Positions 587 to 21,380 of a stretch of DNA of 34,503 bases are shown here, in pieces. Position 1 is the first letter of the stretch. Each line of letters starts with the position of its first letter. A program made the translations under genes and the position numbers. Below the pieces are notes generated by a model. It did no database searches and had not been told where the DNA came from. It saw only the letters and a program-made list of their open reading frames with translations. The DNA comes from a virus, in the UHGV virus genome UHGV-0378206; one strand, given 5' to 3'.

Positions 587-1117
587 GTGGCAAGGAAAAA
601 CATGTTCGATTTTCTTATGATTAACTCTGAGTATGTGTCTATTGTCGGTGCGGTTTTAGCTTTTGTGGGCACAATTGTACTCGCTTTTTCTATGGGAAAA
701 GTATTGTGGGAATTCATGTTCTCAATTGACGCGATATCTACCAGTATTGAAAGTATAGCAGACGGGGGCGATATTTACGTCTTTCAAGGACTTCATGAAA
801 GAATATCAAAAGCTATTTCTTCATCCAAAAAGCCCACTTGGATTGGGATAATATTAGTATTTATATCAATGCTAATGCAAGGTTATTCTTTATATCTAAG
901 TTTTGAAAGTAATAAAATAAATTCGATGAAGTACGAAAATAGAATAAATGAAGTTCATGACGAAATTACTGAAACAAAAAATACACTGAACATATTAAAC
1001 AGTAAGTTGTTAGCTAAAATTGATGAAAAACAGTTCCAAATAGATGAGCTTAAACGTATTCAGAGAGAACAAAATGAAAGTTTACGGAGCATTATTAAAA
1101 AACAGAAAAAGAATTAA
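587..1117 (+). CDS. hypothetical membrane protein with C-terminal coiled-coil
   Basis: ORF with two hydrophobic helices ('VSIVGAVLAFVGTIVLAF', 'WIGIILVFISMLMQGY') then a charged, heptad-like C-terminus; start is GTG at 587 or ATG at 602 (RBS 'aagga'). Confidence 0.45.
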   Translation: MARKNMFDFLMINSEYVSIVGAVLAFVGTIVLAFSMGKVLWEFMFSIDAISTSIESIADGGDIYVFQGLHERISKAISSSKKPTWIGIILVFISMLMQGYSLYLSFESNKINSMKYENRINEVHDEITETKNTLNILNSKLLAKIDEKQFQIDELKRIQREQNESLRSIIKKQKKN

Positions 1118-1518: not shown

Positions 1519-2058
1519 TTATTTCTTTATCGAGATCTCTATTTTATTATCCTTTTCGACCAAGGCATATATATCTTTGCTATCCAATGAGCGAATGGAG
1601 ATATACGTGTGGTCATCTGGCTTTTGTTTTACACAGATGACCGGGGCTTCATTTTCGGGATTGGCCAACTTGCTGTATTCATTGGAAAATTCCTTTAGAC
1701 TAATTAATAATTTTATCACTCCAGACAAGCTTACCATTGTAAGGAATAGATAACCCCAGACACTGGAGAAAATATTAGCAAATGTAAGGTTAGAATTAAT
1801 ATTCGAGATGCAATATATATAATATGCATAACTTATTAGAGAGAATAAACTGAGCAACGAATCTACAGACTTTTTTAAAACTTCACTGTAGATATTATGT
1901 GAGAAGAAAAATATAATACCACCGCAAAACAATGGAATTATAAGCAGTATCAATGTCAGGGCCCAATTGTGGTTGTTACCATATATGTAAAGGGAGATGA
2001 AGCATGTAAATGTAGTTAACAATGCGACCAATTTACTGAGAGTAGGATTATTTATCAC
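1519..2058 (-). CDS. multi-pass membrane protein (about 4 TM helices) with short soluble C-terminal domain
   Basis: 179-aa ORF, RBS 'aggag' 7 nt upstream of ATG; hydrophobic stretches through the first ~110 aa; same strand as and downstream of the SIR2-like gene. Confidence 0.5.
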   Translation of the reverse strand: MINNPTLSKLVALLTTFTCFISLYIYGNNHNWALTLILLIIPLFCGGIIFFFSHNIYSEVLKKSVDSLLSLFSLISYAYYIYCISNINSNLTFANIFSSVWGYLFLTMVSLSGVIKLLISLKEFSNEYSKLANPENEAPVICVKQKPDDHTYISIRSLDSKDIYALVEKDNKIEISIKK

Positions 2059-2279: not shown

Positions 2280-3602
2280 TTATTTCCTCTGTAGATAAAT
2301 GAATGTTTTACAGTTATTATTAGAGGTTCTTTCAAAATGATCAGCAAGTTTATTTATTTGCTGATCTTTATACATTTCTATATTGTCAAGTTCAGGACAG
2401 ATTTCACTGAACGCAAAGATTGGAAAGAACTGGGAACTCTGTATCTTCTGTTTATTTAATAATATAATTAATTGCTTATTTGCTTCCTCTACAATCTTGA
2501 AATAATCTTGCATCATTTCAGGCTTGGTTTGAAACTCATACTTAACTCGTTTATGAGAACCTACGGCTAATACCATTTGTCCATTTTTTAACTGGTCTAA
2601 ATCTTCTGTGATTTTTACTTCAATTTCACCACCGCTTTTTATTTCATTCCAGACTTTTTGAACTTTTCTAATATCCATTGCTGAAACTGGTAATATTAAG
2701 TCTGATAAACTTTTATATATAGAAGAGTAATCGTCGGTTTTGATTTTATTTATTCTTATAGTGGTAGCATTCCCTATGTATATATCGTGTTCAGATATGG
2801 CAGTAGATCTTGAATCTTTTTCATATTCCACAAGCAAAAAATTACTTCTAATTTTATTTGCTATATCTGAGTTAGTAGGTACATAGGAAAAAATGGTCTT
2901 TAGAATTTGCTGTATGTTTCTGTCACTAATGCTGTATCCAATAAAGATAACAGGATTATGAATAAATAGTGAGAGTAATTGTGCTCTAATTAGTTCATAT
3001 TTGTTATCGAAATAGTCATAATCTTGTTCTGTAATCGTTAGTTCGTAAGGGGCTGACACACAACCATGTATTTTATAGACAGAACCATAAGGATTACTTA
3101 AAAGTATGCTATTGCCTATTAGTGGTTCAAATTCAAAGAGTTGCTCAATCAATAAATCATAGTTCGTTGTGATGATTGATCCGATGTTTTTTCTCATCTT
3201 AATGAGTTCAGCTATCTCTTCGCTTTTTTCTTCTTTTAATTCTACAGTTGATAATAGCTGAGTAATATATATTTTAAATCTGCTTAAATTAATTCCCTTA
3301 TCCATCTCTTTATAGAAAATATCATTTATTTCTTTAAACTTTCCATTTCTATCGTTAGACAAAGTTTCATTGAATTTTCTTTCTATATCACTGGCAATTT
3401 TATCATATTTATATTCACCATTGATTTGACATTTTGATTTAATATCAAGATATGTTTCTTTATCACCAGTGAGTTCGAAACAAATATATGAGAGTAAACC
3501 ATTCCAATCATAGGAATTAGAGAGATATCGCAAGCTAAACCCAGTTCCGATGAAGAGCACTGGATGATTTCGATACTTTGCTATGAATTCATTAATTTCC
3601 AT
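2280..3602 (-). CDS. SIR2-like (SIR2_2-type) domain protein, probable NAD+-consuming defence effector
   Basis: Ordered motifs in the N-terminal ~230 aa: 'PVLFIGTGFS' (GxGxS), 'IITTNYDLL' (TTNYD), 'YKIHGC' (KxHG), 'VIFIGYSISD' (GYSxxD); C-terminal ~200 aa unassigned. Confidence 0.75.
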   Translation of the reverse strand: MEINEFIAKYRNHPVLFIGTGFSLRYLSNSYDWNGLLSYICFELTGDKETYLDIKSKCQINGEYKYDKIASDIERKFNETLSNDRNGKFKEINDIFYKEMDKGINLSRFKIYITQLLSTVELKEEKSEEIAELIKMRKNIGSIITTNYDLLIEQLFEFEPLIGNSILLSNPYGSVYKIHGCVSAPYELTITEQDYDYFDNKYELIRAQLLSLFIHNPVIFIGYSISDRNIQQILKTIFSYVPTNSDIANKIRSNFLLVEYEKDSRSTAISEHDIYIGNATTIRINKIKTDDYSSIYKSLSDLILPVSAMDIRKVQKVWNEIKSGGEIEVKITEDLDQLKNGQMVLAVGSHKRVKYEFQTKPEMMQDYFKIVEEANKQLIILLNKQKIQSSQFFPIFAFSEICPELDNIEMYKDQQINKLADHFERTSNNNCKTFIYLQRK

Positions 3603-3812: not shown

Positions 3813-4577
3813 ATGCTGAAAATTAACAAATGTCCACTTTGCCGTAAAAATAATGAACTTGTCCATAGCCATTTGATTTCTAAGTTTGTTTATAAAATTA
3901 TTCGCGAATGTCAGCCATATGAGAAAATAAACGAATGTTCTCCAATGATTGTTGATAGCCGTTTAGGTCTTCTACAGAAATCAACACGTCAAGAAAAACA
4001 AATTCTCCTTTGTTCTGCATGTGAAGAGTTATTTTCTGAAAAAGAAACTGCGATGGCGAAAATTATTCGTGAACTGCAAAGAACAGATGTGAGGCAGAAA
4101 AAGATATTAGCATACCAAAAGGAACTGTGTAGCAAATTAAATGGTCAAGACATTCTTTATTTTACAGATGAAAAAGTCTCTACAATTAAATATTTTGCTA
4201 TGTTGAATTTATTTAGAAATATAGTGTGCGAGAGAGTGCCTCGCATAGTAAGAAAAGAGTTAATTAAGATTAGAAAATATCTTCTACGCGAATCTGATTA
4301 TTCTTTGCCATTAATCATTCATGTTAACGACAGTGATTTTTTCCCCATAGCCTCAACTCCATTCAAAATTGATTCTGATAATTGCTATCATTATATTTTT
4401 TTAATTCCTGAGTTTTTATTTCATTTCTTCTTTTGTATGTCACAACTAAACTTGCAGTTTAATGACGTAATGATTATGCCAGAACATCTTTCTTCAAAAG
4501 AAGAAGTGGAAATTCACCTTAGGAACTCAATGAAAGACATTCGCATTGCTAATAATGCAAAGAAATATATAAAATGA
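3813..4577 (+). CDS. hypothetical protein with N-terminal Cys/His cluster
   Basis: 254-aa ORF; 'CPLC...HSH...CSAC' suggests a zinc-binding module; remainder unrecognised; weak RBS. Confidence 0.45.
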   Translation: MLKINKCPLCRKNNELVHSHLISKFVYKIIRECQPYEKINECSPMIVDSRLGLLQKSTRQEKQILLCSACEELFSEKETAMAKIIRELQRTDVRQKKILAYQKELCSKLNGQDILYFTDEKVSTIKYFAMLNLFRNIVCERVPRIVRKELIKIRKYLLRESDYSLPLIIHVNDSDFFPIASTPFKIDSDNCYHYIFLIPEFLFHFFFCMSQLNLQFNDVMIMPEHLSSKEEVEIHLRNSMKDIRIANNAKKYIK

Positions 4578-5188: not shown

Positions 5189-6328
5189 TTAGTTTTGTTT
5201 TTGATAGTCTCTTTGATGTTGAAGAATCAATTCAAATTCTCTAACTTCTGCAACTATATGAGTTACATGATGTGTCGTGTCTATTGATACCCAATTCGTA
5301 GTATTACCAACAAATTCTTCATTGGCACATTCATAAATCTTTTTATCACCCCAGCTAAATTTCTCACCTTTATAATGGGGGGATGAAACCAGTATCTTAC
5401 ACAAATCTTGCATTTGTGCTCCCTTTTTACCGGTAGCACGAGAATACCCTCTTACAACGAAAAGGCTATCGTCTATAGTATATCTAATCTTACCGTTAGC
5501 ATCGGGTGCAATGATGTCATCTCCGATAGAGGGATTAACGATACCATAATCTCCAAATACTAAATTTAAATCAGGTTGGAATTTTTTGAATGCTTTCCAT
5601 ACCTTAGCTTCTTTACGGATAACTATACCTTCTGAATTGTGGGTAGGAACCATTCCATTAATATCACTTGTTATTGAACTTCCTGCAATTGAAATAAATT
5701 TAAAATCATACTTGTATAATGAATCCAGTGCTCTCTGCACTGTTTCATTTAGGTCAACTATGGATGTTTTAGTTATATCTTCTAAATCTATCATTACCGA
5801 GCAATTTTCTGGCATTGCACCCAAGGAAGTTAAAATGCCTTCTATTGTTTCAATAAACGGTTCCTCTTCGATCATATCTTCAAAAGCAAAGGAGTTTAAC
5901 CGAATTACAAAGTCAGTATAGCTTGTACCTAATTGTTGCAAAGTAGTTGCATACTCATCATCTTCCCATCGATCATAACCGACGACAGGAATGATATTGC
6001 ACCCAGCATTTCTTAAGGCACTGGTGAGATGACTCAAAATATGCTCTCCTGTTTCAAGAGAAGAGTTTGGAGGCCATCTGCTTATATCAATCCCCATGGG
6101 GAGATTTTGCATCCTTTCGGACAATGTTTTAATTGTATTGTTTAGAAAAAACTCAACTGGATTACCTATGTTAGAGTATTTTTTATTTGTTCTCTGCTTT
6201 TTCGACAGATATGGGATTTCAAAAATCGGAAGCATGTCCCTCATAACGTGGGGATAAGGAAGCATAGACTTAATGGCATCTAACTCACCTTTCTTAGCTT
6301 TTAAAATCGGCATATATTTAGGGTACAT
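5189..6328 (-). CDS. hypothetical protein (379 aa), third gene of the HigB/HigA-ImmA operon
   Basis: ORF starts 14 nt after the stop of the upstream gene, RBS 'gaggtg'; N-terminus 'MYPKYMPILKAKKGELDAIKSM'; no catalytic motif recognised by eye. Confidence 0.6.
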   Translation of the reverse strand: MYPKYMPILKAKKGELDAIKSMLPYPHVMRDMLPIFEIPYLSKKQRTNKKYSNIGNPVEFFLNNTIKTLSERMQNLPMGIDISRWPPNSSLETGEHILSHLTSALRNAGCNIIPVVGYDRWEDDEYATTLQQLGTSYTDFVIRLNSFAFEDMIEEEPFIETIEGILTSLGAMPENCSVMIDLEDITKTSIVDLNETVQRALDSLYKYDFKFISIAGSSITSDINGMVPTHNSEGIVIRKEAKVWKAFKKFQPDLNLVFGDYGIVNPSIGDDIIAPDANGKIRYTIDDSLFVVRGYSRATGKKGAQMQDLCKILVSSPHYKGEKFSWGDKKIYECANEEFVGNTTNWVSIDTTHHVTHIVAEVREFELILQHQRDYQKQN

Positions 6329-6341
6329 ATAGACACCTCGT

Positions 6342-7571
6342 CTACCAAATATGATTAGGGAAATGCTTTCTTACTTCACCTTGACCAACTAAATCAGAAA
6401 ATTGATTGTATTTTCCAGTTTCTCTTCTAATTCTTCCTGCGATTATTGCAGGATGAATTCTTAATTCTCTTGAAAGCTCATCTATCGTGAATGTGCTGGG
6501 ATTTAAGTAAGCTGAACTCCGTTTCCAAATGACGCGAGGAATGAGAGTATCTCTGGCTATTCGATTAGCCTCTGCTTCCATTTTGTCTGTACTATTCTTG
6601 AGTGTTTCAATGTCATCGATAAATGTGTTAGTAGAATCTGCATGTTTCCAGATATGGACTAACTCATGTAAAAGTGTAAACCAGAAATTATCCAAACGAT
6701 CTTGTCTTAAAGTGAGTGCAATAATTGGTCTACCGTCAATATCCCTCAGAGCAGCCCCATCAACAGCAGTACCAGTCAGACAAGGTTCAATGATCACACA
6801 AATCCCATTTTTTTCTAAGAACTCCACCGCTAATAGAGGTCCATATTCGGACCAACTTAAATGTGCGATCTCTTTTAAAAAATCTTTAGTTATGCAATCT
6901 TGCTTAAATTTAGTTGCGAGTTTTTTTTCCCTGGCTTTCTGGACTACTCTTGCAATCCATGCATGTAATTTATAAACAGTTGTAGGTGAGTAAGACTCTC
7001 CGTTAAGTGTTCGCTTGAAGGCTGCTGTAGAAAAATTCGCACCCAAACCCTCAATGAAATTTTTGACTTTTTCTTCTGTAGTCGTTTTTGTTTGCGAGAC
7101 AATGTTTTCTATCCAACCTTTGGAAAGCATTTCTTTTATAGGAAATTTTGACCAATTAACCTCCTCAACTGGAGAACGATTTGCATATCCAGTTTCTGTT
7201 TCTAAGCCCAATAATGTTTGAGGAGACATACCTAAACCTATTGATAAGGCTTTGATCATAGCGACGGTTAAAGGACGTTTTCCCGATAACACCTCTGATA
7301 CACGACTTTTTGTTCCAAAATATGGGGTGAGATCCGCTTGGCGTAAGCCCTGTTCGTCCATTCGGAATTTGATTGCCTCGATTGGATCTACCGGTGTTAC
7401 TGGATAGTTAGCATTTTCATAATTTTCAATAACAACTGTAAGTAAATCAAGACGTTCTGATTCTTCAGATCCTGCAGGAAGATCCAATCTGAGTAATCTC
7501 TCAACTTCTGAAAGGGCCGCATGATATTGTTCTTCAGTTCGAATAACCCGAACTTCAGTAAGTTTACTCAT
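6342..7571 (-). CDS. HigA-like HTH antitoxin domain fused to ImmA/IrrE-type zinc metallopeptidase domain
   Basis: N-terminal region resembles HigA-type HTH antitoxins ('GTKSRVSEVLSGKRPLTVAMIKALSIGLGMSPQTL'); C-terminal half has HEXXH 'LLHELVHIW'; start overlaps upstream stop as ATGA. Confidence 0.7.
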   Translation of the reverse strand: MSKLTEVRVIRTEEQYHAALSEVERLLRLDLPAGSEESERLDLLTVVIENYENANYPVTPVDPIEAIKFRMDEQGLRQADLTPYFGTKSRVSEVLSGKRPLTVAMIKALSIGLGMSPQTLLGLETETGYANRSPVEEVNWSKFPIKEMLSKGWIENIVSQTKTTTEEKVKNFIEGLGANFSTAAFKRTLNGESYSPTTVYKLHAWIARVVQKAREKKLATKFKQDCITKDFLKEIAHLSWSEYGPLLAVEFLEKNGICVIIEPCLTGTAVDGAALRDIDGRPIIALTLRQDRLDNFWFTLLHELVHIWKHADSTNTFIDDIETLKNSTDKMEAEANRIARDTLIPRVIWKRSSAYLNPSTFTIDELSRELRIHPAIIAGRIRRETGKYNQFSDLVGQGEVRKHFPNHIW

Positions 7572-7831
7572 TTAGATACCACCTGGTTAATCACCGCAAT
7601 GCTCCTTTCAAACTGAAATGTTACTTTTATGCCCTGCGATTTAATGCCTCGAACAAAGAACACATAGCACAAATTATCAATCTGCTGTGCTCTGGGGAAA
7701 GCATCTAAAACTCCCTTAGCATCTTTCCAGTAAGCGTTAGTGAGCTCTGCAACCCAAGCGGAAAGCCAAACATCCGTTTCAGGGTTAGTACCACTTAGCA
7801 CTTGAAGCCTTTGCTTGCCGATTAGTCGCAT
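7568..7831 (-). CDS. higB: HigB-family (RelE/ParE-fold) toxin-like protein
   Basis: About 87 aa from the internal ATG with RBS 'ggaga' (ORF extends to 7882); sequence pattern resembles E. coli-type HigB; toxin-upstream-of-antitoxin order as in higBA. Confidence 0.55.
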   Translation of the reverse strand: MRLIGKQRLQVLSGTNPETDVWLSAWVAELTNAYWKDAKGVLDAFPRAQQIDNLCYVFFVRGIKSQGIKVTFQFERSIAVINQVVSK

Positions 7832-8037
7832 TGATGTTCTCCATTTGGGAACCAGAATAAGTGTGGTGATTCTGAATGTCAATACAATGTTCCCATAAGT
7901 GGAACTTGTCGCCTCCAGTTCTCATCTCTTTATGGCTACATAACTCTAAGAATCAATGGAAAGCTCTTTAATAAGAATAAAAATATGATTTAGATCAAAT
8001 GTATATCGGCGTGCCGGGATGCTTATAGTGGGGCGAT

Positions 8038-9267
8038 TTAGGCCGCAATCGCTTTTAGCTTTTGAGCCTGAACATAGTTACTCCACCACTGCATGAGAAC
8101 CACTCGTTCTGCAAGATAATCTGCGCGATTATATGCGGCAATTATTTCATCTTTCTTCGAGTGAGCAAGGGCCGCTTCTAAGACATCTGTCCTGAACTTA
8201 CCCGACTCCTCTGAGGCCGTTCGTGCAATAGATCTCATTCCATGGGCTACAAGCTCTCCACCAAAGCCCATACGGATTATGGCCGCATTCGCTGTTTGTT
8301 CATGCATATGATTGAGTGGAGCTTTGATACTGGGGAAAACCCACTCTCTGTGCCCACTGATGGCTTTCATTGAATCCAAGACTCGCAAAGCTTCTTTGCT
8401 TAGTGGAACTTTGTGAGGCTTCTTCATTTTCATAAACTCAGCCGGGATGTTCCACATCGAGTTGTCAGTATCTATATCGGCCCATCTCGCACGAACGGCT
8501 TCCCCTGGACGAACCCAGGTCAGCAATTGCCATTCAATCAGCAATCTTGTCTCCATACGAACTGAGGCATTGTTTAACACCATTAGGAAGCGGGGTAACT
8601 CGGAAGGGGGTAATGCTGGCATATTCTGTTTTTTAGGCTTACTGAACCGTTGCCCAAGGTTGTCAGCCGGATTGAACTCGATAAGTTCTTCAGTCGCGGC
8701 CCAGCGAAAAATTTCATTTAATCGGGAAATGATTCGCCGTAAGGTTTCGAGGACTCCTCGTTGTTCAATAGGGTCGAGATGTTGCTTTAAGAGTTTGGGT
8801 CGGATCTCATTGATAGGAACCTTACCCAAGCCGGGAAATATATTTCTCTCCAAGCTTCGCCAGATGTCTTCTGCATGGTCTTGTGAGATACCAGAGGTCT
8901 TTACCTTCTCATCCAACCATTTCCTTGCCACGGCTTGGAGAGTGTGTTCAGTAGCATTCTTTAAGGCATTAGCTTTATCGTTGTTATGAACTTGGGGATC
9001 AATGCCATTAGCAAGCAAGGAAAGGTATTCATCTCGTAAGGCTCTGGCTCTTGCCAGTGTAAGGTGAGGATAGGTCCCAAGGCTCATTTTGGTTCTTTTT
9101 TTACTCACTGGCACTGCATACCTGAAATACCAATTCTTCTTTCCTCCTTTCGAGAGGGGAGCGATTCGTAGTATCAAACCATCTCCGTCAAACAAGTTGA
9201 TTTCTTTGTCGGCTGGCTTGGTGCTTTTGATTTCAGTGTCAGTGAGCTTCTTAGCGATTTTTGCCAT
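8038..9267 (-). CDS. intA: tyrosine integrase, IntA/P4 family (CP4-57-like)
   Basis: 'DIWRSLERNIFP' and C-terminal 'HGMRSIARTA...LAHS...AYNR' are integrase catalytic-domain features; sits next to the ssrA 3' fragment as in CP4-57; start at ATG 9267 (RBS 'gaggg'), alternative ATG at 9309. Confidence 0.85.
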   Translation of the reverse strand: MAKIAKKLTDTEIKSTKPADKEINLFDGDGLILRIAPLSKGGKKNWYFRYAVPVSKKRTKMSLGTYPHLTLARARALRDEYLSLLANGIDPQVHNNDKANALKNATEHTLQAVARKWLDEKVKTSGISQDHAEDIWRSLERNIFPGLGKVPINEIRPKLLKQHLDPIEQRGVLETLRRIISRLNEIFRWAATEELIEFNPADNLGQRFSKPKKQNMPALPPSELPRFLMVLNNASVRMETRLLIEWQLLTWVRPGEAVRARWADIDTDNSMWNIPAEFMKMKKPHKVPLSKEALRVLDSMKAISGHREWVFPSIKAPLNHMHEQTANAAIIRMGFGGELVAHGMRSIARTASEESGKFRTDVLEAALAHSKKDEIIAAYNRADYLAERVVLMQWWSNYVQAQKLKAIAA

Positions 9268-9364
9268 TTTGGGACCCTCGGTTTTTGGACCCTTCTTAGT
9301 GGGTCCCATTCAGGGTGCCATATGTGATAGTTCTCAGCAATTCTCACTGGACGACAATAGACGT

Positions 9365-9432: not shown

Positions 9433-9477
9433 TGGTGGAGCTGGCGGGAGTTGAACCCGCGTCCGAAATTCCTACAT
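9433..9477 (-). other. ssrA: 45-nt 3' end of tmRNA gene ssrA (att core / direct repeat); not an intact tmRNA gene
   Basis: Reverse complement reads 'atgtaggaatttcggacgcgggttcaactcccgccagctccacca', the acceptor/T-arm 3' terminus of enterobacterial tmRNA; flanking sequence does not continue into the tmRNA body. Confidence 0.8.
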
Positions 9478-9603
9478 ACTATTTTTAATACAATGAAAAC
9501 AGTAGTTTGCGTTTAAAAACAGTGTGTTACTATTATCCTGTGTTTATCCGTTTTACGCATTTTTAATGCTCTGCCGCCAAGTTGTCGCCAATTTTAGGCT
9601 AAC

Positions 9604-10617
9604 TTACGGTTGGCTGTTTTTAACATTCAAAAGAAAGTTCTTCCAAATTATTTGCAGTGAATTTTTATCTAAATCAATCTTATGAGGTTTGATGTTTTTT
9701 CCTTCATATATATTTTTGTAATAGCAATCGATAGCAAAATGAATAGTTAAATTATCTGGATGTATGGCTAGTAGACCTCGGTCAAGCAAGGCATGAAGGG
9801 TAGGTTCAAGAGGTATTCCATTGTTGGTTCTATGGTTTTGGGTCTGAGAAAATGGTTCAAGGTGACATGCCTGCAATACTGGGAGGTTGTAACCTGTTAT
9901 TGCGCATACATTTGAGAAGTTTTTTAGAACCCTTTTTTTAAAGTCAACCTGTTCGCCAGAGTCACGCTGTAATACTGTTTGCAGATGAGTATTGCCTTTT
10001 GTGACAACTGGTATACTAATTGTATCAGAGGGATTTATAAATATGACTGGCGGTAGAGTAGGTTCTAGAATGTTTTTTTGTCCAAGAAACTGCCTTGATA
10101 ATAATTCATCTTTAGCGATTTTTATTGCTTCACTTTTTGTTAATGAAAGGCATGCCAGATTATACGCATCTACATTGAAATATTTAGTTTCCCTGTTTAG
10201 CGTAATGGATGATATTTTTTTATCGTGTTCTGCTATTGGTATACCTTTTGTGACAGGATGCGAAATGCTTTCAAGCAGTGTTGTATTGCCATTTATTTCT
10301 TTATTAAACAATGAGGTAGGGTGTTCAATCATATTGCTATGCTTGGCGCGATAGTGCTCATATAGGCCATGAGCACTTTTGAAATTTTTCTTGCATATTA
10401 TACAGCTAACATTTCCTCCATTAATTTTTTTTGAATTTCTTTTTCTGGATTCAACAAGAGAGTTTGTTAGATCTTCTCTTAGTTTTAATATTCTGAGGTT
10501 GGTTGGGTTGTTTCCTCGTCTATATGGTAAGCTCTCAAGTCTATTTAACTCATTTTTGAGGTGTTGGTACTGTTTACGTGAAATTAAATTAGGTTTCATA
10601 TTTAAGATTAAGATCAC
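9604..10617 (-). CDS. C2H2 zinc-finger plus HNH_2-type nuclease domain protein (prophage cargo between att and int)
   Basis: 'CIICKKNFKSAHGLYEHYRAKH' (C2H2 finger); C-terminal 'CAITGYNLPVLQACHLEP...NNGIPLEPTLHALLDRGLLAIH' matches the HNH_2 signature; gene is AT-rich unlike the adjacent int. Confidence 0.65.
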   Translation of the reverse strand: MILILNMKPNLISRKQYQHLKNELNRLESLPYRRGNNPTNLRILKLREDLTNSLVESRKRNSKKINGGNVSCIICKKNFKSAHGLYEHYRAKHSNMIEHPTSLFNKEINGNTTLLESISHPVTKGIPIAEHDKKISSITLNRETKYFNVDAYNLACLSLTKSEAIKIAKDELLSRQFLGQKNILEPTLPPVIFINPSDTISIPVVTKGNTHLQTVLQRDSGEQVDFKKRVLKNFSNVCAITGYNLPVLQACHLEPFSQTQNHRTNNGIPLEPTLHALLDRGLLAIHPDNLTIHFAIDCYYKNIYEGKNIKPHKIDLDKNSLQIIWKNFLLNVKNSQP

Positions 10618-10639
10618 TTTTGTGTACTTACATTATAAG

Positions 10640-11671
10640 TTACATGTTATTCGACAAGTATATAAAGTTCAAAGGGTTTTTCGTTACTGCATCTTCCAGA
10701 TGGTCTGGAGAAAAATGGGCGTAAATCATCGTCATTTTTATATCGGCATGGCCCAAAATATCGCGCAGTACCAGTATGTTTCCGCCGTTCATCATGAAAT
10801 GGCTGGCGAATGTATGGCGTAGAACGTGGGTGCATTGTCCCTCTGGCAGTTCAATACCAGCTCGTTTTACTGCCCGTTCAAAGGCTTTTCTGCATGGGGT
10901 GAATAGCCTTCCTCTGTTTTTAGGGAGTTCGTTGTAAAGATCCTGAGATATTGGCACGGTACGGTTTTTCTTGCCCTTCGTCTTGGTATAAGTGATGCGG
11001 TATTTGGATAACTGATGGCCCTGCAGATTTTCTGCTTCACTCCACCGTGCGCCAGTAGCTAGGCATATTTTTGCAATCATTAGTAAGCTAGGGCTTTGAG
11101 ATTCAGCACATGCCGCCAACAGGCGCTTGATTTCGTCCGTGGAAAGAAAAGCCAGCTCACCTTCGGCAATTTTGAAGGTCGGAAGTCCTGCCAGCGGGTT
11201 TGGTGCTGACCAGTGTCCTAGTTTTTTTAATGTACCGAACACCGATGATAGATTGCGCTGTTCAAGGTTTACCGTGCGGGGCTTAACGGGCGACATAAGC
11301 GTGCCATCTTCATTTCGTATTTCACCTTTTAACCGTGCTTCGCGGTATTTCGTAAAGTCTCCGGCTGTCAGCTCAGAGGCGATGGGGTCGCCTAGACCAT
11401 TACAGATAATTCTAAGTTTCGCCATGAGGCGCTTGGGGTCTGCGAGTGTCTGACCATACAGGGAATACCAAAGCTCAATTAATTCTGATAGGCGTCGCCG
11501 ATCATCCTTTTCACCCAACCACGGTTTTTTATTCACTTCTTCCATTGTGAAGCTTTCAAACGCAATGGCTTCGCCTTTCGTGGCAAATTGCTTACGCACG
11601 CGCTTGCCATTGCGTCCATTGGGATAGCACTCACACAACCATTTTCCGTTCGGCTGTTTTCTGATGGTCAT
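10640..11671 (-). CDS. int: P2-type tyrosine integrase
   Basis: 'GRNGKR', 'RRLSEL', 'TGARWSEA', 'RTVPIS', 'HVLRHTFASHFMMNGG', 'LGH...MTMIYAHFSPDHLEDAV' match P2 Int signature blocks. Confidence 0.9.
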   Translation of the reverse strand: MTIRKQPNGKWLCECYPNGRNGKRVRKQFATKGEAIAFESFTMEEVNKKPWLGEKDDRRRLSELIELWYSLYGQTLADPKRLMAKLRIICNGLGDPIASELTAGDFTKYREARLKGEIRNEDGTLMSPVKPRTVNLEQRNLSSVFGTLKKLGHWSAPNPLAGLPTFKIAEGELAFLSTDEIKRLLAACAESQSPSLLMIAKICLATGARWSEAENLQGHQLSKYRITYTKTKGKKNRTVPISQDLYNELPKNRGRLFTPCRKAFERAVKRAGIELPEGQCTHVLRHTFASHFMMNGGNILVLRDILGHADIKMTMIYAHFSPDHLEDAVTKNPLNFIYLSNNM

Positions 11672-11672
11672 A

Positions 11673-12305
11673 TCAAAGGCTCTTAATGATTTTCAGTGCG
11701 CGGCCTACTACCTCAATGTCATCCAGATCGCACTCAAACGATGAATCATCCTGATGCACTACTAATTTGTTTCCCGGGAGTCGAGTCAATTTAACGATGC
11801 TTTTTATCCCGTCGATATCGACTAACCACATACCATTTACTGGTGGTGTTTGGTTGCGATCTATTAAATAAGAATCACCAGAAGTAGTCACCAGCAGTAG
11901 GTTGCTTGAGTCTGAGGGGAGTATGCTGCTATCAATGATTGCTTTTCCAGCATCGACCAATAAACCACCGTTGAGAGTCGCCTTGTCAATTTCAGGAGAT
12001 ACTAGTTCAGAAAGAGGTACAACCTTGCTGGAGTTCACGGAATTGATATTTTTTTTAGGTTCAATGTTTGGACCTGGATCCCCCTGTCCGGTGGTTAGCC
12101 ACAGTAAAGAAACTCCTGTTTCCAAGGCGCACTGAATCACCCACTCTGCAGGGAAACTATCTCTTAAGTATCTGTTTGCCATGGTGCTTTTTGATGCGCC
12201 TAAGTGATCGCAAAGTTGCTGTCTGGACTTGAAATCATAGGCTGCCATTAGTCTATGGATAGCCTCTCTTCCCCCTGTATTCTCTCCAACCTTTACCTGT
12301 ATCAT
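11673..12305 (-). CDS. cI: 186-type CI immunity repressor
   Basis: N-terminal HTH ('QCALETGVSLLWLTTGQG') and C-terminal 'WLVDIDGIKSIVKLTRLPGNKL...FECDLDDIEVVGR' resemble coliphage 186 CI; divergent from the cox/apl-like gene. Confidence 0.7.
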   Translation of the reverse strand: MIQVKVGENTGGREAIHRLMAAYDFKSRQQLCDHLGASKSTMANRYLRDSFPAEWVIQCALETGVSLLWLTTGQGDPGPNIEPKKNINSVNSSKVVPLSELVSPEIDKATLNGGLLVDAGKAIIDSSILPSDSSNLLLVTTSGDSYLIDRNQTPPVNGMWLVDIDGIKSIVKLTRLPGNKLVVHQDDSSFECDLDDIEVVGRALKIIKSL

Positions 12306-12317
12306 TTTTTAATCCTG

Positions 12318-12369
12318 TTGACGTATCAAATATTGGATCGTAGTATCTCGATGTATCAAATATTGAATC
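12318..12369 (+). promoter_or_regulatory. candidate early rightward promoter with two repeated operator-like sites
   Basis: -35 'ttgacg' (12318..12323), 17-nt spacer, -10 'tagtat' (12341..12346); 18-nt near-identical direct repeats 'gtatcaaatattggatcg' (12323..12340) and 'gtatcaaatattgaatca' (12352..12369), each with internal dyad symmetry. Confidence 0.4.
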
Positions 12370-14023: not shown

Positions 14024-14250
14024 TGGCTGATGCAATGGATCTCGTACAGCAGCGCGTTGAAGAAGAACGCCAGCGCCATATCCGTGCTGCCCGTGCCAAA
14101 ACACCGGGCGTGTCACGCGTACTTTGCATTGAATGTGAAGCGCCAATTCCGCCAGCACGACGCCGCGCCATTCCGGGAGTGCAGCTTTGCATTACCTGTC
14201 AGGAAATCGCAGAACTGAAAGGCAAACATTACAACGGAGGTGCTGTATGA
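14023..14250 (+). CDS. TraR/DksA-family C4 zinc-finger protein
   Basis: 'CIECEAPIP...CITCQE' four-Cys finger; typical small P2/186 early protein; stop overlaps the dam start (ATGA). Confidence 0.65.
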   Translation: MADAMDLVQQRVEEERQRHIRAARAKTPGVSRVLCIECEAPIPPARRRAIPGVQLCITCQEIAELKGKHYNGGAV

Positions 14251-15095
14251 GCACCATCCTGAAATGGGCGGGAAATAAAACGGCCATTATGGCAGAACTG
14301 AAAAAATACCTTCCTGCTGGCCCGCGACTGGTTGAACCTTTCGCGGGTTCCTGCGCAGTGATGATGGAGACGGATTACCCCAGCTATCTGGTTGCGGATA
14401 TTAATTCTGATTTAATCAACCTCTATAAAAAGGTTGCCGCTGATTGTGAATCGTTTATATCTCGCGCCAGAGTTTTATTTGAGAACGCAAACAGGGAGAT
14501 GGCTTATTACAACATAAGGCAGGAGTTTAATTACTCAACTGAAATTACTGATTTCATGAAAGCAGTATATTTCCTGTATCTCAATCGTCACGGTTACCGT
14601 GGTTTATGTCGCTATAACAAGAGCGGGCATTTCAACATTCCCTACGGTAATTATAAAAATCCGTATTTCCCTGAAAAAGAAATTCGTGCATTTGCAGAAA
14701 AAGCCCAGCGGGCAACATTTATCTGCGCCAGCTTCGATGAAACGCTGGCAATGTTGCACGCGGGGGATGTTGTGTATTGCGATCCGCCTTATGACGGTAC
14801 GTTTTCCGGTTATCACACTGACGGCTTCACTGAAGATGACCAGTATCACCTGGCATCCGTTCTTGAACATCGGTCATCAGAAGGACATCCGGTCATTGTT
14901 TCTAACAGTGACACATCCCTGATCCGTTCGCTGTATCGCAATTTCACTCACCACTACATCAAGGCAAAACGCAGCATTGGCGTGTCAGCTGGCGAGAGTA
15001 AATCTGCAACAGAAATCATTGCCACCAAATCAGCTGGGTGGTTTGGTGTCGATTTTGCCAGCGGCTCTGACCGTACCGTTGAGGTACGCGCATGA
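14247..15095 (+). CDS. dam: DNA adenine methyltransferase (Dam family)
   Basis: N-terminal 'LKWAGNK...EPFAGS' AdoMet-binding motif and 'DPPY' catalytic motif ('[10 protein letters not shown]'); ORF 14187..15095 with preferred start 14247. Confidence 0.85.
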
Positions 15096-16102
15096 ATGCT
15101 ATCGATCCGCGTTGCTTTGCCTCAGGCACAATTAACGTCATCACTACTTCTGGTGGCAAAGATAGTCTCGCTCAATGGCTAAGAGCCATTGAAAACGATG
15201 TTCCGCATATTTCTGTATTTGCCGATACGGGTCATGAACATCCACAGACAATAGAATATCTGGATTATCTGGAATCAAAGCTGGGCAAGATTATTCGCGT
15301 CAAAGCGGATTTCACACGCCAGATAGAAGGGAAACGTAAATTCATTGCGGAAAAGTGGCCCATTTCTCTCGTTGAGGAATGTGGTATGTCGACAGATGAG
15401 GCTGAGGAACGTATTTACCGGGCACTGGAAATCCTTAAACCAACCGGCGTTCCGTTTCTTGATTTGTGCATGTGGAAAGGTCGCTTCCCTTCAACAAAAG
15501 CTCGTTTCTGCACTTTTGAACTGAAACATGAACCAATACGTACACAGGTAATCGATCCAGCTCTGGATGAATACGATGAGGTAATAAGCTGGCAAGGAGT
15601 CCGGGGGCAGGAATCACCGGAACGTGCATTGTTGCCTGAGTGGGAGGACGATGCAGACAATACTCTGGGGCTGCATGTTTATCGTCCGATCCTTAATTGG
15701 CTGCATGAGGATGTGTTTGCTATTGCCAAACGTCATGGCATTAAGCCTAACCCCCTTTATATGCAGGGATGCAGTCGTGTCGGTTGTATGCCATGCATTC
15801 ATGCTCGCAAGTCAGAACTTGGAGAGATTTTCCAACGCTGGCCAGAAGAAATCCGCCGAGTGGCTGAGTGGGAAAGACTGGTTGCGGAATGTTCAAGACG
15901 TGGCAATTCAACGTTCTTTCAATCCACGCATGATCCGCGCCGTGCTGAAAAACGGATCGAAGTCATAACTGTTGATGCTTATGGCATTGAAACTTATCGG
16001 GACTGGGCCTTAACGACTCGGGGCGGTATGCAGTTTGACCTGCTGGCAGGCATGAATGATAAAGCGGTGTGCAGCAGTGTATATGCAGGAGTCTGTGAGT
16101 GA
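15092..16102 (+). CDS. PAPS-reductase-like (PP-loop ATP pyrophosphatase family) protein
   Basis: PP-loop 'TSGGKDS' near N-terminus; Cys cluster '[13 protein letters not shown]'; translationally coupled to dam and gene A. Confidence 0.7.
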
Positions 16103-18540
16103 CAGAGATCAGCACAGGCCGTCTTGCCGATCCATTTGTCAGTGTAACTTCCGGTAGCATTGAGAATTCTGCCGGGGGTTATTCGTGGAATTTACCTAAG
16201 AAAGCCATTAACCCTTATCTGGACCCGGCGGAAGTTGCGCCGGTTTCTGCGCTTTCAAACCTGATCACTCTGTACGCTACCGATAACGAGCAGGAACAAC
16301 TGCGCCGCGAGGCACTGAGTGATCAGGTCTGGGAGCGTTATTTCTTTAATGAATCCCGTGATCCTGTCCAGCGCGAAATGGAGCAGGATAAGCTCATTAG
16401 CCGGGCAAAGTTGGCGCATGAGCAGCAGCGTTTTAACCCGGACATGGTCATTCTGGCAGACGTCAGCGCCCAGCCCTCCCATATCAGCAAGCCGCTGATG
16501 CAACGTATTGAATACTTCAGCAGCCTGGGCAGGCCAAAGGCTTATTCCCGCTATTTACGTGAGACGATTAAGCCATGTCTGGAACGACTGGAGCATGTAC
16601 GCGACAGCCAGCTATCTGCATCTTTTCGTTTTATGGCAAGCCATGTAGGGCTGGACGGCCTGCTGATTCTGCCTGAAATGAGTCAGGATCAGGTGAAACG
16701 CCTGTCTACCCTTGTCGCTGCGCATATGAGTATGTGCCTTGATGCAGCTTGTGGTGATTTGTATGCCACCGATGACGTTAAGCCAGAAGAAATCCGCAAG
16801 ACATGGGAAAAGGTGGCAGCGGAAACCCTGCGTCTGGATGTCATCCCGCCTGCGTTTGAGCAACTCCGTCGGAAAAGAAACCGCCGTAAACCCGTGCCCT
16901 ATGAACTCATTCCGGGTTCGCTGGCGCGTATGTTGTGCGCCGACTGGTGGTACCGGAAATTATGGAAAATGCGTTGCGAATGGCGGGAAGAGCAGTTGCG
17001 TGCTGTCTGCCTGGTCAGCAAAAAAGCATCTCCCTATGTCAGCTATGAAGCCGTGATGCATAAACGTGAGCAGCGCCGCAAGTCACTGGAGTTTTTCCGT
17101 TCTCATGAACTGGTGAACGAAGAGGGCGACACGCTGGATATGGAAGACGTGGTAAACGCCAGCAGCAGCAACCCGGCGCACCGCCGCAATGAGATGATGG
17201 CCTGTGTTAAAGGTCTGGAGCTTATCGCGGAAATGCGCGGTGACTGCGCCGTTTTCTACACCATTACCTGTCCGTCACGTTTCCATTCTACGCTCAATAA
17301 CGGCAGACCAAACCCAACCTGGACAAATGCGACGGTAAGACAAAGCAGCGATTATCTGGTCGGCATGTTTGCTGCATTTCGTAAGGCGATGCACAAAGCC
17401 GGGTTGCGCTGGTATGGCGTGCGGGTGGCTGAGCCGCATCATGACGGTACAGTTCACTGGCACCTGTTGTGTTTCATGCGCAAAAAAGACCGCCGCGCCA
17501 TTACTGCATTGTTGCGTAAGTTTGCCATCCGTGAAGACCGCGAGGAACTGGGTAATAACACTGGTCCACGCTTTAAATCTGAGCTGATAAACCCGCGCAA
17601 AGGAACGCCGACAAGCTACATCGCGAAATACATCAGTAAGAACATTGACGGGCGTGGTCTGGCTGGCGAGATCAGCAAGGAAACGGGTAAATCCCTGCGT
17701 GATAACGCTGAATACGTTAATGCCTGGGCGTCTCTGCATCGTGTACAGCAATTCCGCTTCTTTGGTATTCCGGGACGTCAGGCTTACCGTGAACTTCGCT
17801 TGCTGGCTGGTCAGGCGGCAAGGCAACAAGGTGACAAAAAAGCAGGTGCGCCGGTACTGGATAACCCGCGTCTTGATGCCATTCTGGCTGCTGCTGATGC
17901 TGGTTGTTTTGCCACCTACATCATGAAGCAGGGCGGCGTACTGGTCCCCCGCAAATATCACCTCATCAGAACCGCTTATGAAATCAACGAAGAGCCAACC
18001 GCCTATGGCGATCACGGTATTCGTATTTATGGCATCTGGTCACCCATTGCAGAGGGCAAGATCTGCACTCATGCAGTGAAGTGGAAAATGGTTCGTAAGG
18101 CCGTTGACGTTCAGGAGGCGGCAGCCGACCAGGGCGCTTGCGCCCCTTGGACTCGTGGCAATAACTGTCCCCTTGCTGAAAATTTGAACCAACAGGAGAA
18201 AGATAAATCAGCTGATGGGGACCCCAGAACGGACATTACCAGCATGGATGACAAGGAGTTGCACGATTACCTGCACAGTATGAGCAAAAAAGAGCGCCGG
18301 GAACTGGCAGCAAGGTTACGCCTGGTGAAACCGAAACGGCGTAAAGACTACAAACAGCGAATTACAGACCATCAGCGACTGCAGCTCGTGTATGAGCTGA
18401 AGTCCAGAGGATTTGATGGCAGCGAGAAAGAGGTCGATTTACTCCTTCGCGGAGGCAGTATTCCGTCAGGAGCAGGCCTGCGTATCTTCTATCGGAACCA
18501 GCGTTTGCAGGAAGATGATCAGTGGCGGAACCTGTATTAA
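16099..18540 (+). CDS. A: replication initiation endonuclease (P2 gpA family, rolling-circle HUH)
   Basis: 813-aa ORF with '[13 protein letters not shown]' HUH-type motif and conserved Tyr-containing region; position and size match P2 A. Confidence 0.85.
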
Positions 18541-19349: not shown

Positions 19350-19439
19350 CGCGCGTTGCAAACCATGTCGATGCTGTTATCATTTGCAGCAAGTTTTCAA
19401 AGTGCTAAAGCATTCTTTAATTCCAAGGTAGGTATAGAT

Positions 19440-21380
19440 ATGATAGCCGGGTTGTTTATCCGTAACGTCAAAACATATCAAGGCATAAATTATATTCCTT
19501 TGACAGACGCTCCAAATTTTAGCGGTTTCTTAGGAAATAATGGGATAGGGAAAAGCTCAATACTTGAGGCATTGGATGTAATATTTAATGCTAAAGAGTG
19601 GAATTATAATACAGCTGTCAAAAAGAGCGGTATAGAAAAAACCAGCCCACATATTGTACCGGTTTTTATATTGGAGGAGGATTTTTTTGATTCTGAGACA
19701 CTCCCTTTTGCAAAAACGCTAGATGCTTTAGCTAGGGAGGTTAGCTTAGAGGATGCTACAAACTCACAAACAAAAACTATTCTTGAAAATTTTATAAGTC
19801 ATCGTGATAGACTTTTTGCACGAAATGATATGCAAGGGCAGTTAATTATTCCTATTGGACGCCTTCATAATAATAATATGTCATTATCTGTTTTAGCAGG
19901 TAGAAGTCTATCTACTATAATGGAAAAAGATATATTTGGTGCCGGATTCAAGTTAAGTGAAGGTATAGAGTTAGCTAAACATTTTCAAGTTTTATTTGAT
20001 TATATCACTGGTAAGTTAGAATATTTATATATACCAAAAGAGATTGATACTGAGGTTTTTACTAAGCTTGAGAGTATTGGAACTCAAGTATTGATGGGTG
20101 AATCGCTGCATGAAATTCTTGATAGAATAGTTGGTGAGTCAAAAATTGGAGAAATCAACAGAGAACTAAGCGGATTTCTTGAAGATATCTCAACGAAGCT
20201 AGTTAACTATACGTATAGAACGCCTTCGGATAGGCAAAAAAGAATTCAAAAAAAAGAAGTCTATAACTTAATTATACAAGCGTTTTTTAACGTCAGAAAA
20301 TTACATAAAACCCACAATGGCGAGCATTTTTTAGAAATTAGTAATTTGAGTTCGGGGGAAAAGCAGAAGGCTATTATTGATGTTGCGCATGCATTGCTGA
20401 CAAAGCATAGAAGTAATAGTGATAATTTAATCATAGCCATAGATGAGCCTGAGTCTTCATTGCACATGTCTGCTTGTTTTGAACAATTTCAAGCGTTATC
20501 AGAACTAAGTTTAGGATGTAGGCAACTATTGTTTTCCTCTCATTGGTATGGTTTTCTCCCCACCTTGGAAAAGGGAACTGTTACAATAATAACTAAAAAA
20601 AATAATGAGCATCTTTTTGATCTGATCAATTTAGCATCTTACCGGGAAGAAATAAAACAACTTGTTCGAGATAGTAGGGGAAAGTTACCATTTGATATTA
20701 GAATTAAAAGTATGAATGATTTTACTCAGTCATTATTATCTAGTGCAACAGGTGAGAAACCATATAATTGGTTGATTTGTGAGGGTTCATCGGAAAGAAT
20801 TTATCTTTCAGCATATTTTAAGGATTTGATAAAGAATCATAATCTTCGTATTGTACCTGTTGGGGGGGCGTCGGAAATTAAAAAAATATATAACTATCTC
20901 TCTGCCTGCTATAAGGATGTCGAAGGGGAGATTACCGGAAATATATATTTGTTAGCTGATACTGATAGCCAGTTGGTCAGATATGACGTCGGAACATATC
21001 AAAGATTACATTGTAAAAGATTTGTTTATGATTCGTCTAAAAACAGGGCGATCTTAGTTAAGATAGACACAAATCCGGTATCGCCTGCAACTGAGATAGA
21101 GGATGTTTTGAACGCAAAAATCTATTACCAGACCTTATTGTCATTTGCTGGTGATTACGATTATTTAAGTTTCATTAATAATATTGATGCTCCAAGTGAT
21201 AATCTGGAATCTTACTCAGCTCTTGATCTCAGAGTTAGTGAAAAAAATGCCATAAATAGATTTTTTGATGATGGAAATAATAAGTTTTTATTCGCAAAAA
21301 GATATGTTGAATTAATGACGGAAGAAAATAGTGTTCCAGAGTGGATTAGTGAGATTAGAGAGGTAATGACTTCAGCTTAG
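19440..21380 (+). CDS. ABC-type ATPase fused to Toprim-like nuclease domain (OLD-family-like; possibly fused PARIS AriA-AriB-like) at the P2 old/tin cargo position
   Basis: Walker A 'GNNGIGKSS', ABC signature-like 'LSSGEKQ', Walker B 'LIIAIDEPESSLH'; C-terminal 'LICEGSSER' and 'LLADTDS' fit Toprim E / DxD motifs; AT-rich; preferred start ATG 19440 (RBS 'aaggtagg'), ORF opens at 19356. Confidence 0.75.
   Translation: MIAGLFIRNVKTYQGINYIPLTDAPNFSGFLGNNGIGKSSILEALDVIFNAKEWNYNTAVKKSGIEKTSPHIVPVFILEEDFFDSETLPFAKTLDALAREVSLEDATNSQTKTILENFISHRDRLFARNDMQGQLIIPIGRLHNNNMSLSVLAGRSLSTIMEKDIFGAGFKLSEGIELAKHFQVLFDYITGKLEYLYIPKEIDTEVFTKLESIGTQVLMGESLHEILDRIVGESKIGEINRELSGFLEDISTKLVNYTYRTPSDRQKRIQKKEVYNLIIQAFFNVRKLHKTHNGEHFLEISNLSSGEKQKAIIDVAHALLTKHRSNSDNLIIAIDEPESSLHMSACFEQFQALSELSLGCRQLLFSSHWYGFLPTLEKGTVTIITKKNNEHLFDLINLASYREEIKQLVRDSRGKLPFDIRIKSMNDFTQSLLSSATGEKPYNWLICEGSSERIYLSAYFKDLIKNHNLRIVPVGGASEIKKIYNYLSACYKDVEGEITGNIYLLADTDSQLVRYDVGTYQRLHCKRFVYDSSKNRAILVKIDTNPVSPATEIEDVLNAKIYYQTLLSFAGDYDYLSFINNIDAPSDNLESYSALDLRVSEKNAINRFFDDGNNKFLFAKRYVELMTEENSVPEWISEIREVMTSA

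Follow-up and report, generated by a model that had tools for sequence, protein, structure and literature searches.

What is a small, AT-rich nuclease gene doing between the integrase gene of a prophage and the site at which that prophage joins the host chromosome? The question is raised by a stretch of 34,503 nucleotides, UHGV virus genome UHGV-0378206, which as a whole is called the window below. A reading of its letters (the original prediction) had placed a 337-codon gene at 9604..10617, between int and an att fragment of ssrA, and proposed that its product combines a C2H2-type zinc finger with a C-terminal HNH_2-type nuclease motif. Such a protein might serve in phage defense or superinfection exclusion, or might be the product of a homing-endonuclease-like accessory gene (a "moron"). 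Here, we argue that a 186/Fels-2-like prophage carries the gene as accessory cargo, that it occupies a slot holding one gene, and that its product probably acts as a solitary, methylase-independent, restriction-like nuclease which protects the lysogen from phages or mobile DNA. On sequence comparison and a predicted structure, we put the probability of this reading at about 0.6; we infer both the defense role and the target of the HNH protein. The defense side of the earlier proposal is favored over the homing side, because many unrelated genes occupy the same slot and because the nuclease domain is Type IV-like.

The Gene and its Prophage Setting

The minus-strand open reading frame at 9604..10617 is indeed present, with a GTG start and 337 codons, but this is probably not the extent of the gene. 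The RefSeq protein WP_001413720.1 ("HNH endonuclease signature motif containing protein"), whose identical gene is annotated by RefSeq in four complete Escherichia coli genomes, begins at the ATG at 10599, as do the homologs, and the true 5' end is therefore probably 18 nt (six codons) shorter, giving a protein of 331 residues. Residue numbers throughout refer to this form. With that start, the cargo gene occupies 9604..10599 on the minus strand and encodes a zinc finger, a three-helix module and an HNH_2 nuclease domain, as delineated from the reading frame, Pfam, the homologs and an AlphaFold model. It is not a chance reading frame, since about 1 kb stays open at 34% GC and homologs extend down to 28% identity.

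On one side, the gene faces the att site. The 3' end of ssrA (tmRNA) lies at 9433..9477 (minus strand), where Rfam RF00023 gives a 5'-truncated match of 48 bits, and forms the att core at the prophage junction. This 45-mer has a single exact copy in the window, the ssrA-fragment portion of the query is matched in 5426 of 5426 complete E. coli genomes, and no complete tmRNA or tRNA gene was detected within the 34,503 nt. Beyond the att core is the integrase gene of a CP4-57-like island (8038..9309). From the ssrA 3' fragment and the adjoining island integrase, we conclude that the prophage integrated into ssrA beside an older ssrA island. Directly inside the core is a 113-bp attP arm (9478..9590), 83-90% identical in phages that carry other cargo or none, and because this arm is conserved in related phages, the cargo gene lies inside the phage side of att. 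The position first proposed for the gene, between int and the ssrA att fragment, is thus upheld by the tmRNA match, the domains of the integrase and the conserved arm.

On the other side, the prophage tyrosine integrase gene int (10640..11671, minus strand; Int_N and Phage_integrase in Pfam) lies directly upstream on the same strand, 40 nt from the ATG and 22 nt from the GTG. It is preceded by the gene for a 186-type CI repressor (11673..12305, minus strand; Phage_CI_repr and Phage_CI_C), the first gene of a leftward cI-int-cargo string. A promoter scan placed a promoter-like site at cI (12329..12301), and the window scan found no terminator-like site between int and the cargo gene. The start of the cargo gene falls between -4 and +40 nt from the int stop codon in seven of the eight filled loci, and at 122 nt in the remaining one. 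Given these short gaps and the lack of a terminator-like site, the simplest assumption, by analogy with phage 186, is that the lysogenic cI-int transcript would read through into the gene and so express it. The prophage had been called P2-like; it does belong to the P2/186 group, but its CI-type repressor, cII and fil make it a 186/Fels-2-like E. coli prophage rather than P2 proper.

An Exchangeable Slot between int and att

How sharply is the gene set off from the rest of the prophage? Against every different-cargo or empty-slot locus compared, homology ends at about 9590-9598 on the left, and per-base alignment sets the break directly after ...CGCCA at 9590. On the right, homology resumes at 10659..10674, within the last int codons after the conserved ...EDAVTKNPL. 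The variable cassette between these borders (9591..10670) comprises a spacer, the HNH gene and the last int codons after ...TKNPL, and its GC content is 0.336 versus 0.511 for the prophage portion of the window, in keeping with the earlier description of the gene as AT-rich. After ...TKNPL, the integrase ends in 2-9 residues (10640..10670; loci L002 and L004-L012) that vary by cargo; because they differ for each cargo, the C-terminal tail of int must travel with the cassette. At the left border, a tandem GCCGCCA (9573..9579)-N4-GTCGCCA (9584..9590) with 11-bp spacing is kept in all sister phages, and the cassette begins right after it; the pair may be arm-type sites bound by Int and a marker of the recombination border.

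The original prediction had asked whether the slot is variable in related prophages, and it is. Salmonella phage SEN8 and several E. coli strains have nothing in it, with 32-38 bp between the borders, and int is intact in some prophages with an empty slot. In sister prophages it is filled by gapS1 (506 aa; NCBIfam antiphage_GapS1, E 3e-128), in phage Cartapus by the gene for a 401-aa protein labeled putative RES protein (no Pfam match here), and elsewhere by at least five other, unrelated single genes (309, 327, 353, 418 and 419 aa). A junction query without cargo was matched over at least 80% of its att-arm/int/cI/cII backbone in 162 complete E. coli genomes, and among the best 60 of these 162 the insert lengths were 38, 686, 1014, 1051, 1058, 1083, 1261, 1288, 1574 and 1582 bp. 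Of these, 38 bp is the empty slot, 1083 bp the HNH gene and 1574 bp gapS1. In total there are about ten slot states, including the empty one and about eight other cargoes. The HNH gene itself is carried by 4 of the 5426 complete E. coli genomes, as expected of a gene that is not conserved core, and a tblastn search of 50,697 phage records found no full-length homolog, the only HNH-domain matches being in 7-11-like Salmonella phages.

Two further observations concern the slot. When the eight alternative cargo proteins were compared with PADLOC, Pfam and NCBIfam, nothing was found beyond GapS1; six of them, of 309-419 aa and including the Cartapus "RES" protein, matched none of the three (L005, L007, L008, L010, L011 and L012) and are candidates for further defense genes. 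In E. coli ET734 (NZ_CP100922.1), the att-int-cI backbone with a 1.08-kb insert occurs twice, at about 1153541 and about 1188511, 34,970 bp apart, pointing to either two tandem prophages in a double lysogen or a prophage duplication.

The int-att slot has the properties by which hotspots of P2-like phages are recognized, being a fixed interval that holds unrelated genes in close relatives, with a known defense gene among them. The gpA-portal and Z/fun hotspots of these phages have been defined (Rousset et al. 2022; Vassallo et al. 2022), and the int-att interval is a minor defense hotspot that accounts for 3% of their systems (bioRxiv 10.64898/2026.02.27.708500). In the same study, six of eight randomly chosen P4-hotspot loci of unknown function protected against phages.

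Could the gene instead serve the phage's own life cycle, helping in integration or excision or in DNA processing? It does adjoin int, and is apparently co-transcribed with it. Nearly every related prophage lacks the gene, however, and some of these combine an empty slot with an intact int; unrelated genes replace it, and its base composition is foreign. A phage function of this kind is very improbable.

The same slot would also suit a selfish homing-type endonuclease. Such an enzyme would cleave int-att junctions of related phages that lack an insert, and repair of the break by recombination would copy its gene there, the host gaining nothing. Presence/absence polymorphism, a fixed site and sharp borders all fit such an element, the close homologs are all in one slot, and many phage homing endonucleases are HNH enzymes. 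However, the slot's other unrelated cargoes, about eight in number, cannot all be homing genes, and distant relatives of the protein occur in other hotspots (gpA-portal, P4 primase-att and others). Both points weaken the homing explanation, and the nuclease domain bears on it as well.

The Nuclease Domain

The C-terminal domain (residues 213-331; 9607..9963, minus strand, with the Pfam match at 9760..9906) carries the HNH_2-type motif that had been recognized in the letters. A profile search with PF13391 (HNH_2) gave E 9e-11 and 41.9 bits, where the cut-off is 21, and HNH_2 was matched in all 72 family members scanned. An AlphaFold model built on a 72-sequence alignment has a mean pLDDT of 81.9 overall and 95-98 in the nuclease domain at residues 214-329 (a 7-sequence alignment gave an unusable model, with pLDDT 41.8). 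In the model the domain adopts a beta-beta-alpha-metal fold, and the catalytic His, the structural Asn and the residues that would bind the metal are all in place. In a HMMER alignment, H246, N260, H269 and D273 are aligned to H224, N241, D250 and D254 of VcaM4I, residues that have been validated by mutational analysis (PMC7897488). All four are invariant in the 72 sequences, and the enzyme is for that reason predicted to be active.

Which nucleases does this domain most resemble? In a search of the PDB with the family profile, VcaM4I was matched at E 2.8e-7 and TagI far more weakly, at E 0.089. When Foldseek was run with the model, the top ranks went to TagI, VcaM4I and EcoKMcrA, all of them Type IV modification-dependent restriction endonucleases. 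The strong structural matches of the HNH domain were TagI and VcaM4I only, and no other structure scored above 6.4. The structural alignments span only about 130 residues at the nuclease end. Homing-type HNH structures scored far below TagI and VcaM4I, and a Pfam search of the cargo protein found none of the DNA-binding modules of homing enzymes, such as NUMOD or AP2. These results count further against the homing explanation, which we consider unlikely. A role as a terminase-associated HNH protein was rejected on the position of the gene and its lack of conservation.

The domain also raises the possibility of a Type II- or IIS-like enzyme, which would cut unmethylated incoming sites while its own genome is protected by a Dam-type methylase of the prophage or the host. 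The HNH_2 family includes the Type II enzymes HphI and AlwI, a Type II "HNH" model in PADLOC matches the protein weakly, and the prophage encodes a D12 adenine methylase (14187..15095). That methylase, however, belongs to the phage backbone and is present whatever the cargo, and about 3.6 kb separate it from the nuclease gene, with the methylase on the opposite strand and in a different operon. No cognate methyltransferase gene adjoins the nuclease gene, whose neighbors are int and att; among the loci with neighbors examined there was no recurrent adjacent methylase, and most relatives elsewhere have none. Moreover, the closest structures are modification-dependent, not modification-blocked. 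We regard a methylase-protected enzyme as quite unlikely, and less probable than homing.

The Zinc Finger and the N-terminal Half

The N-terminal half begins with a basic helical hairpin (10462..10599, minus strand; helices at residues 8-22 and 31-46), recognized from the AlphaFold model, the pI and the alignment. Residues 8-46 have pLDDT block means of 71-94, and residues 1-60 have a pI of 11. The loop motif of the hairpin, LPYRRG, is kept in close homologs only.

The next element is the C2H2 finger CIICKKNFKSAHGLYEHYRAKH (residues 66-87; 10339..10404, minus strand). Its C-x2-C-x12-H-x4-H ligands, C66, C69, H82 and H87, are invariant across six homologs, down to 47% identity, and it fits the classical C2H2 pattern including the hydrophobic core, with F at +4 after the second Cys and L six residues later. 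Residues 64-90 are predicted to form a beta-beta-alpha finger (strands 64-65 and 72-73, helix 76-90) with pLDDT 87-90. Among the 156 proteins gathered for the family, 29 show the C-x2-C-x10-14-H-x3-5-H pattern, and two of these 29 carry two tandem fingers. The zf-C2H2-type models of Pfam all stay below threshold on the cargo protein (best 16.5 bits versus 27; cut-offs 20.6-30), and some relatives score E 1e-7 (zf-C2H2_4), 4e-7 (zf-met) and 1.5e-6 (zf-C2H2_jaz). In the PDB, the family profile matches eukaryotic finger proteins, mostly of the RNA-binding U1/ZNF593/ZNF622 kind. Judged by the conservation of its ligands and its predicted fold, the zinc finger of the original prediction is probably real, although the Pfam scores fall short.

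A linker predicted to be disordered (residues 92-135, pLDDT <50) is followed by a conserved three-helix module (residues 141-177; 10069..10179, minus strand), defined from the AlphaFold model (pLDDT 93-96 over residues 143-177) and the alignment. Its consensus in the family is YFNxEAYxxAIRxMxxxEAxKLAKD, and in 16 sequences Y146 and A158 are invariant, with A149 and A162 nearly so. A profile of the module matched only designed helical repeat proteins in the PDB, which are composition artifacts, and no relative was detected there. A second linker (residues 178-212), with pLDDT block means of 70-83, leads to the nuclease domain.

The Protein Family and its Genomic Contexts

A word-indexed search found only six close proteins, and a second round with the family profile added four; an exhaustive representative search yielded 2868 proteins at E <=0.001 and 86 at E <=1e-10. 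Many of the best matches align from residue 60 or 130 through the C-terminus, and so the three-helix module and HNH_2 make up the conserved core of the family. A large subset of the family also has the finger, and the extreme N-termini vary. Relative to the homologs of 47-54% identity, the HNH domain is 71-76% identical and the three-helix module 67-72%, followed by the hairpin (40-44%), the finger (37-40%) and the linkers (16-32%).

Where do these proteins occur? Homologs of at least 47% identity with readable context are all in the int-att slot: the 79% homolog and three of about 50% lie directly downstream of int or of an int remnant disrupted by an insertion sequence (IS), and the att arm then follows. 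For two of the homologs (P0003 and P0006), the neighboring genes are clearly P2/186-like. More distant relatives are found in other places. Four viral contigs have a 33-35% relative with the finger in the classical old/tin hotspot, the gpA-portal interval of other P2-like phages; PHROGs places both the query (E 2e-193) and this relative (E 4e-181) in phrog_20585. A 28-29% relative adjoins int in convergent orientation (two viral contigs), and two relatives lie directly after a P4-type primase, a location that indicates a P4-like satellite. Single relatives occur beside a CAP12/Pycsar TIR effector gene, beside ArdC, and in a lambdoid region near Q. An alignment-based genome scan gave eight loci, in Buttiauxella, Pectobacterium, Citrobacter, Pantoea, Enterobacter and one cyanobacterium.

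One locus is worth describing separately. In L013 (a Logan SRR6165288 contig), a 49% homolog sits in a decayed int-att slot broken by an IS3-family element. Its neighbors include a Multi_ubiq/ThiF/BubE ubiquitin-like conjugation set and a large M78-UvrD-PD-(D/E)XK protein, and the surroundings look like a defense island.

How Might the Nuclease Act?

In the reading we favor, gene order suggests that a lysogen would transcribe the gene at the end of the cI-int string. The basic N-terminal half of the protein (hairpin, C2H2 finger and three-helix module) would then recognize some feature of invading nucleic acid, and would also keep the nuclease harmless to the host; the effector held in check in this way would be the TagI/VcaM4I-type HNH domain.

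Several points weigh against this restriction-like role. It would require some means by which the host chromosome is spared. No Pfam domain of the PUA, SRA, EVE, YTH or ASCH kind, or of any other known modified-base reader, was found in the query or 72 relatives, and with a TagI/VcaM4I-type reader absent, a Type IV mode of action amounts to an analogy. The finger is as close to RNA-binding U1/JAZ-type fingers as to DNA-binding ones, its putative base-contact positions appear, in our own reading of the sequence, atypical for DNA readers, and a single finger offers little sequence specificity in any case. In PADLOC, two generic "HNH" models match the nuclease domain only, and there is no full-length defense model. 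Finally, inspection of the sequence found no Shine-Dalgarno motif before either the ATG or the GTG candidate start.

Perhaps, then, the protein is not a direct restriction enzyme but a trigger-activated toxin of the abortive-infection type. In that case the N-terminal half would auto-inhibit the nuclease until a phage protein or replication intermediate activates it, and host and phage DNA would be degraded indiscriminately. The HNH domain of VcaM4I is toxic on its own and is restrained by its linker helix (PMC7897488), so that this type of domain can be governed by steric auto-inhibition. The N-terminal half of the cargo protein has no known DNA-modification reader, and several neighboring cargoes in such hotspots are of abortive type, for example the OLD-like and PD-Lambda-2 genes in this window (see below). 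On the other hand, the 1.08-kb cassette holds a single gene, with no partner, antitoxin or sensor gene, and the basic N-terminus (pI 11) and the finger suggest direct nucleic-acid binding. The abortive and direct-restriction models are indistinguishable from sequence. We consider the abortive model rather unlikely, yet it ranks first among the rivals, ahead of homing, a Dam-protected Type II-like enzyme and phage housekeeping, in that order.

How could so unusual an N-terminal half direct the nuclease? One possibility, which we offer tentatively, is that the protein represents an unrecognized class of single-gene immune nucleases ("natural zinc-finger nucleases"), in which the C2H2 finger, whether classical or U1/JAZ-like, and the new three-helix module sense invading nucleic acid and license the TagI-type HNH domain. 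Candidate signals, put forward just as tentatively, would be a modified base read by the finger, or an A-form or RNA:DNA hybrid intermediate; such a mode would be unlike known Type IV enzymes.

Other Defense-type Genes in the Window

The HNH gene is not the only gene of defense type in the window. The CP4-57-like ssrA island contains a complete three-gene PD-Lambda-2 system (5189..7882, minus strand; PADLOC E 1e-28 to 1e-177), made up of the HigB-like protein A (7568..7882), protein B with a helix-turn-helix (HTH) domain and an M78 peptidase (6342..7571), and protein C, a Beta_protein match (5189..6328), all on the minus strand. A SIR2-like protein is encoded at 2280..3602 (minus strand) and matches the PADLOC candidate PDC-S25 at E 2e-149, with a weaker match to ThsA. 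The island around this gene is about 30% GC, and its open reading frames at 587..1117, 1519..2058 and 3813..4577 have no Pfam or PADLOC match.

Within the prophage, a 674-aa protein of OLD/AriA/AbiL-like type, an AAA_15 ATPase whose TOPRIM domain resembles that of OLD, is encoded at 19356..21380 (plus strand; GC 0.34). Because this gene sits between gpA (16099..18540) and portal (21406..22437), the classical P2 hotspot of the same prophage is also loaded. Just upstream of gpA, the segment 14187..16102 (plus strand) encodes the Dam-type D12 methylase (14187..15095) and then a PAPS-reductase-like protein, whose best PADLOC matches are SspD, BrxP and DndC. The WS4437A-1 prophage carries the same HNH gene without the PAPS-reductase gene, of which a longer form is found in the prophage with the 79% HNH homolog. 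A link between the nuclease and this SspD/DndC-like protein was considered, after NCBIfam had shown weak similarity to a phosphorothioate-dependent restriction enzyme, and was rejected since prophages with the same HNH gene lack it.

Implications

If the gene proves protective, it would be a compact, 1-kb, single-protein system with a new sensor architecture among restriction-like nucleases, and classical C2H2 fingers, which are rare in bacteria, would be shown in use for prokaryotic immunity. If it has no phenotype, it stays an ordinary prophage accessory gene, or moron. The int-att slot of 186-like prophages is now documented at base resolution as a one-gene exchange cassette, and with at least six alternative cargo types that have no recognizable domain, it is a cheap source of candidate defense genes.

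Comparison with Known Systems

How much of this is new? Our literature search found no paper on a C2H2-HNH protein in phage defense, and nothing relevant for HNH_2 and phage defense; phrog_20585 and WP_001413720.1, of which the query is a full-length member, are catalog names without an assigned function. The closest enzymes by structure, TagI (SRA-HNH) and VcaM4I (EVE-HNH), use a base-flipping reader of the PUA superfamily, whereas the cargo protein has a hairpin, one C2H2 finger and a novel three-helix module in its place, and its nuclease domain is just 17-20% identical to theirs. Standing alone, without a cognate methylase, is a trait of TagI/VcaM4I-type enzymes that the single-gene cassette shares. 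The overall layout is Type IV-like, yet the protein is not a member of the PUA-HNH family, since a search for the reader that defines this family came up empty.

A second comparison is with zinc-binding nucleases. Natural zinc-ribbon HNH enzymes have reportedly been described by Xu and Gupta in 2013, a paper cited in PMC7461809. These enzymes and engineered zinc-finger nucleases join a zinc-binding recognition module to a separate nuclease of low specificity, as the cargo protein appears to do. They differ from it in that the cargo protein has one classical C2H2 finger, rather than an array or a zinc ribbon within the HNH fold, and an HNH nuclease rather than one of the FokI type.

Finally, the gene can be set beside the established cargo of P2-like hotspots (old, tin and fun). 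Like them, it is poor in GC, lies between core elements within an interval that has sharp borders, and is exchanged among nearly identical phages. It differs in that its HNH family has neither a reported phenotype nor a full-length PADLOC model, and in that int-att is a minor hotspot compared with the classical gpA-portal or Z/fun. The arrangement is therefore of a known kind, hotspot defense cargo with an HNH effector, and the protein is an uncharacterized variant with an unusual sensor half.

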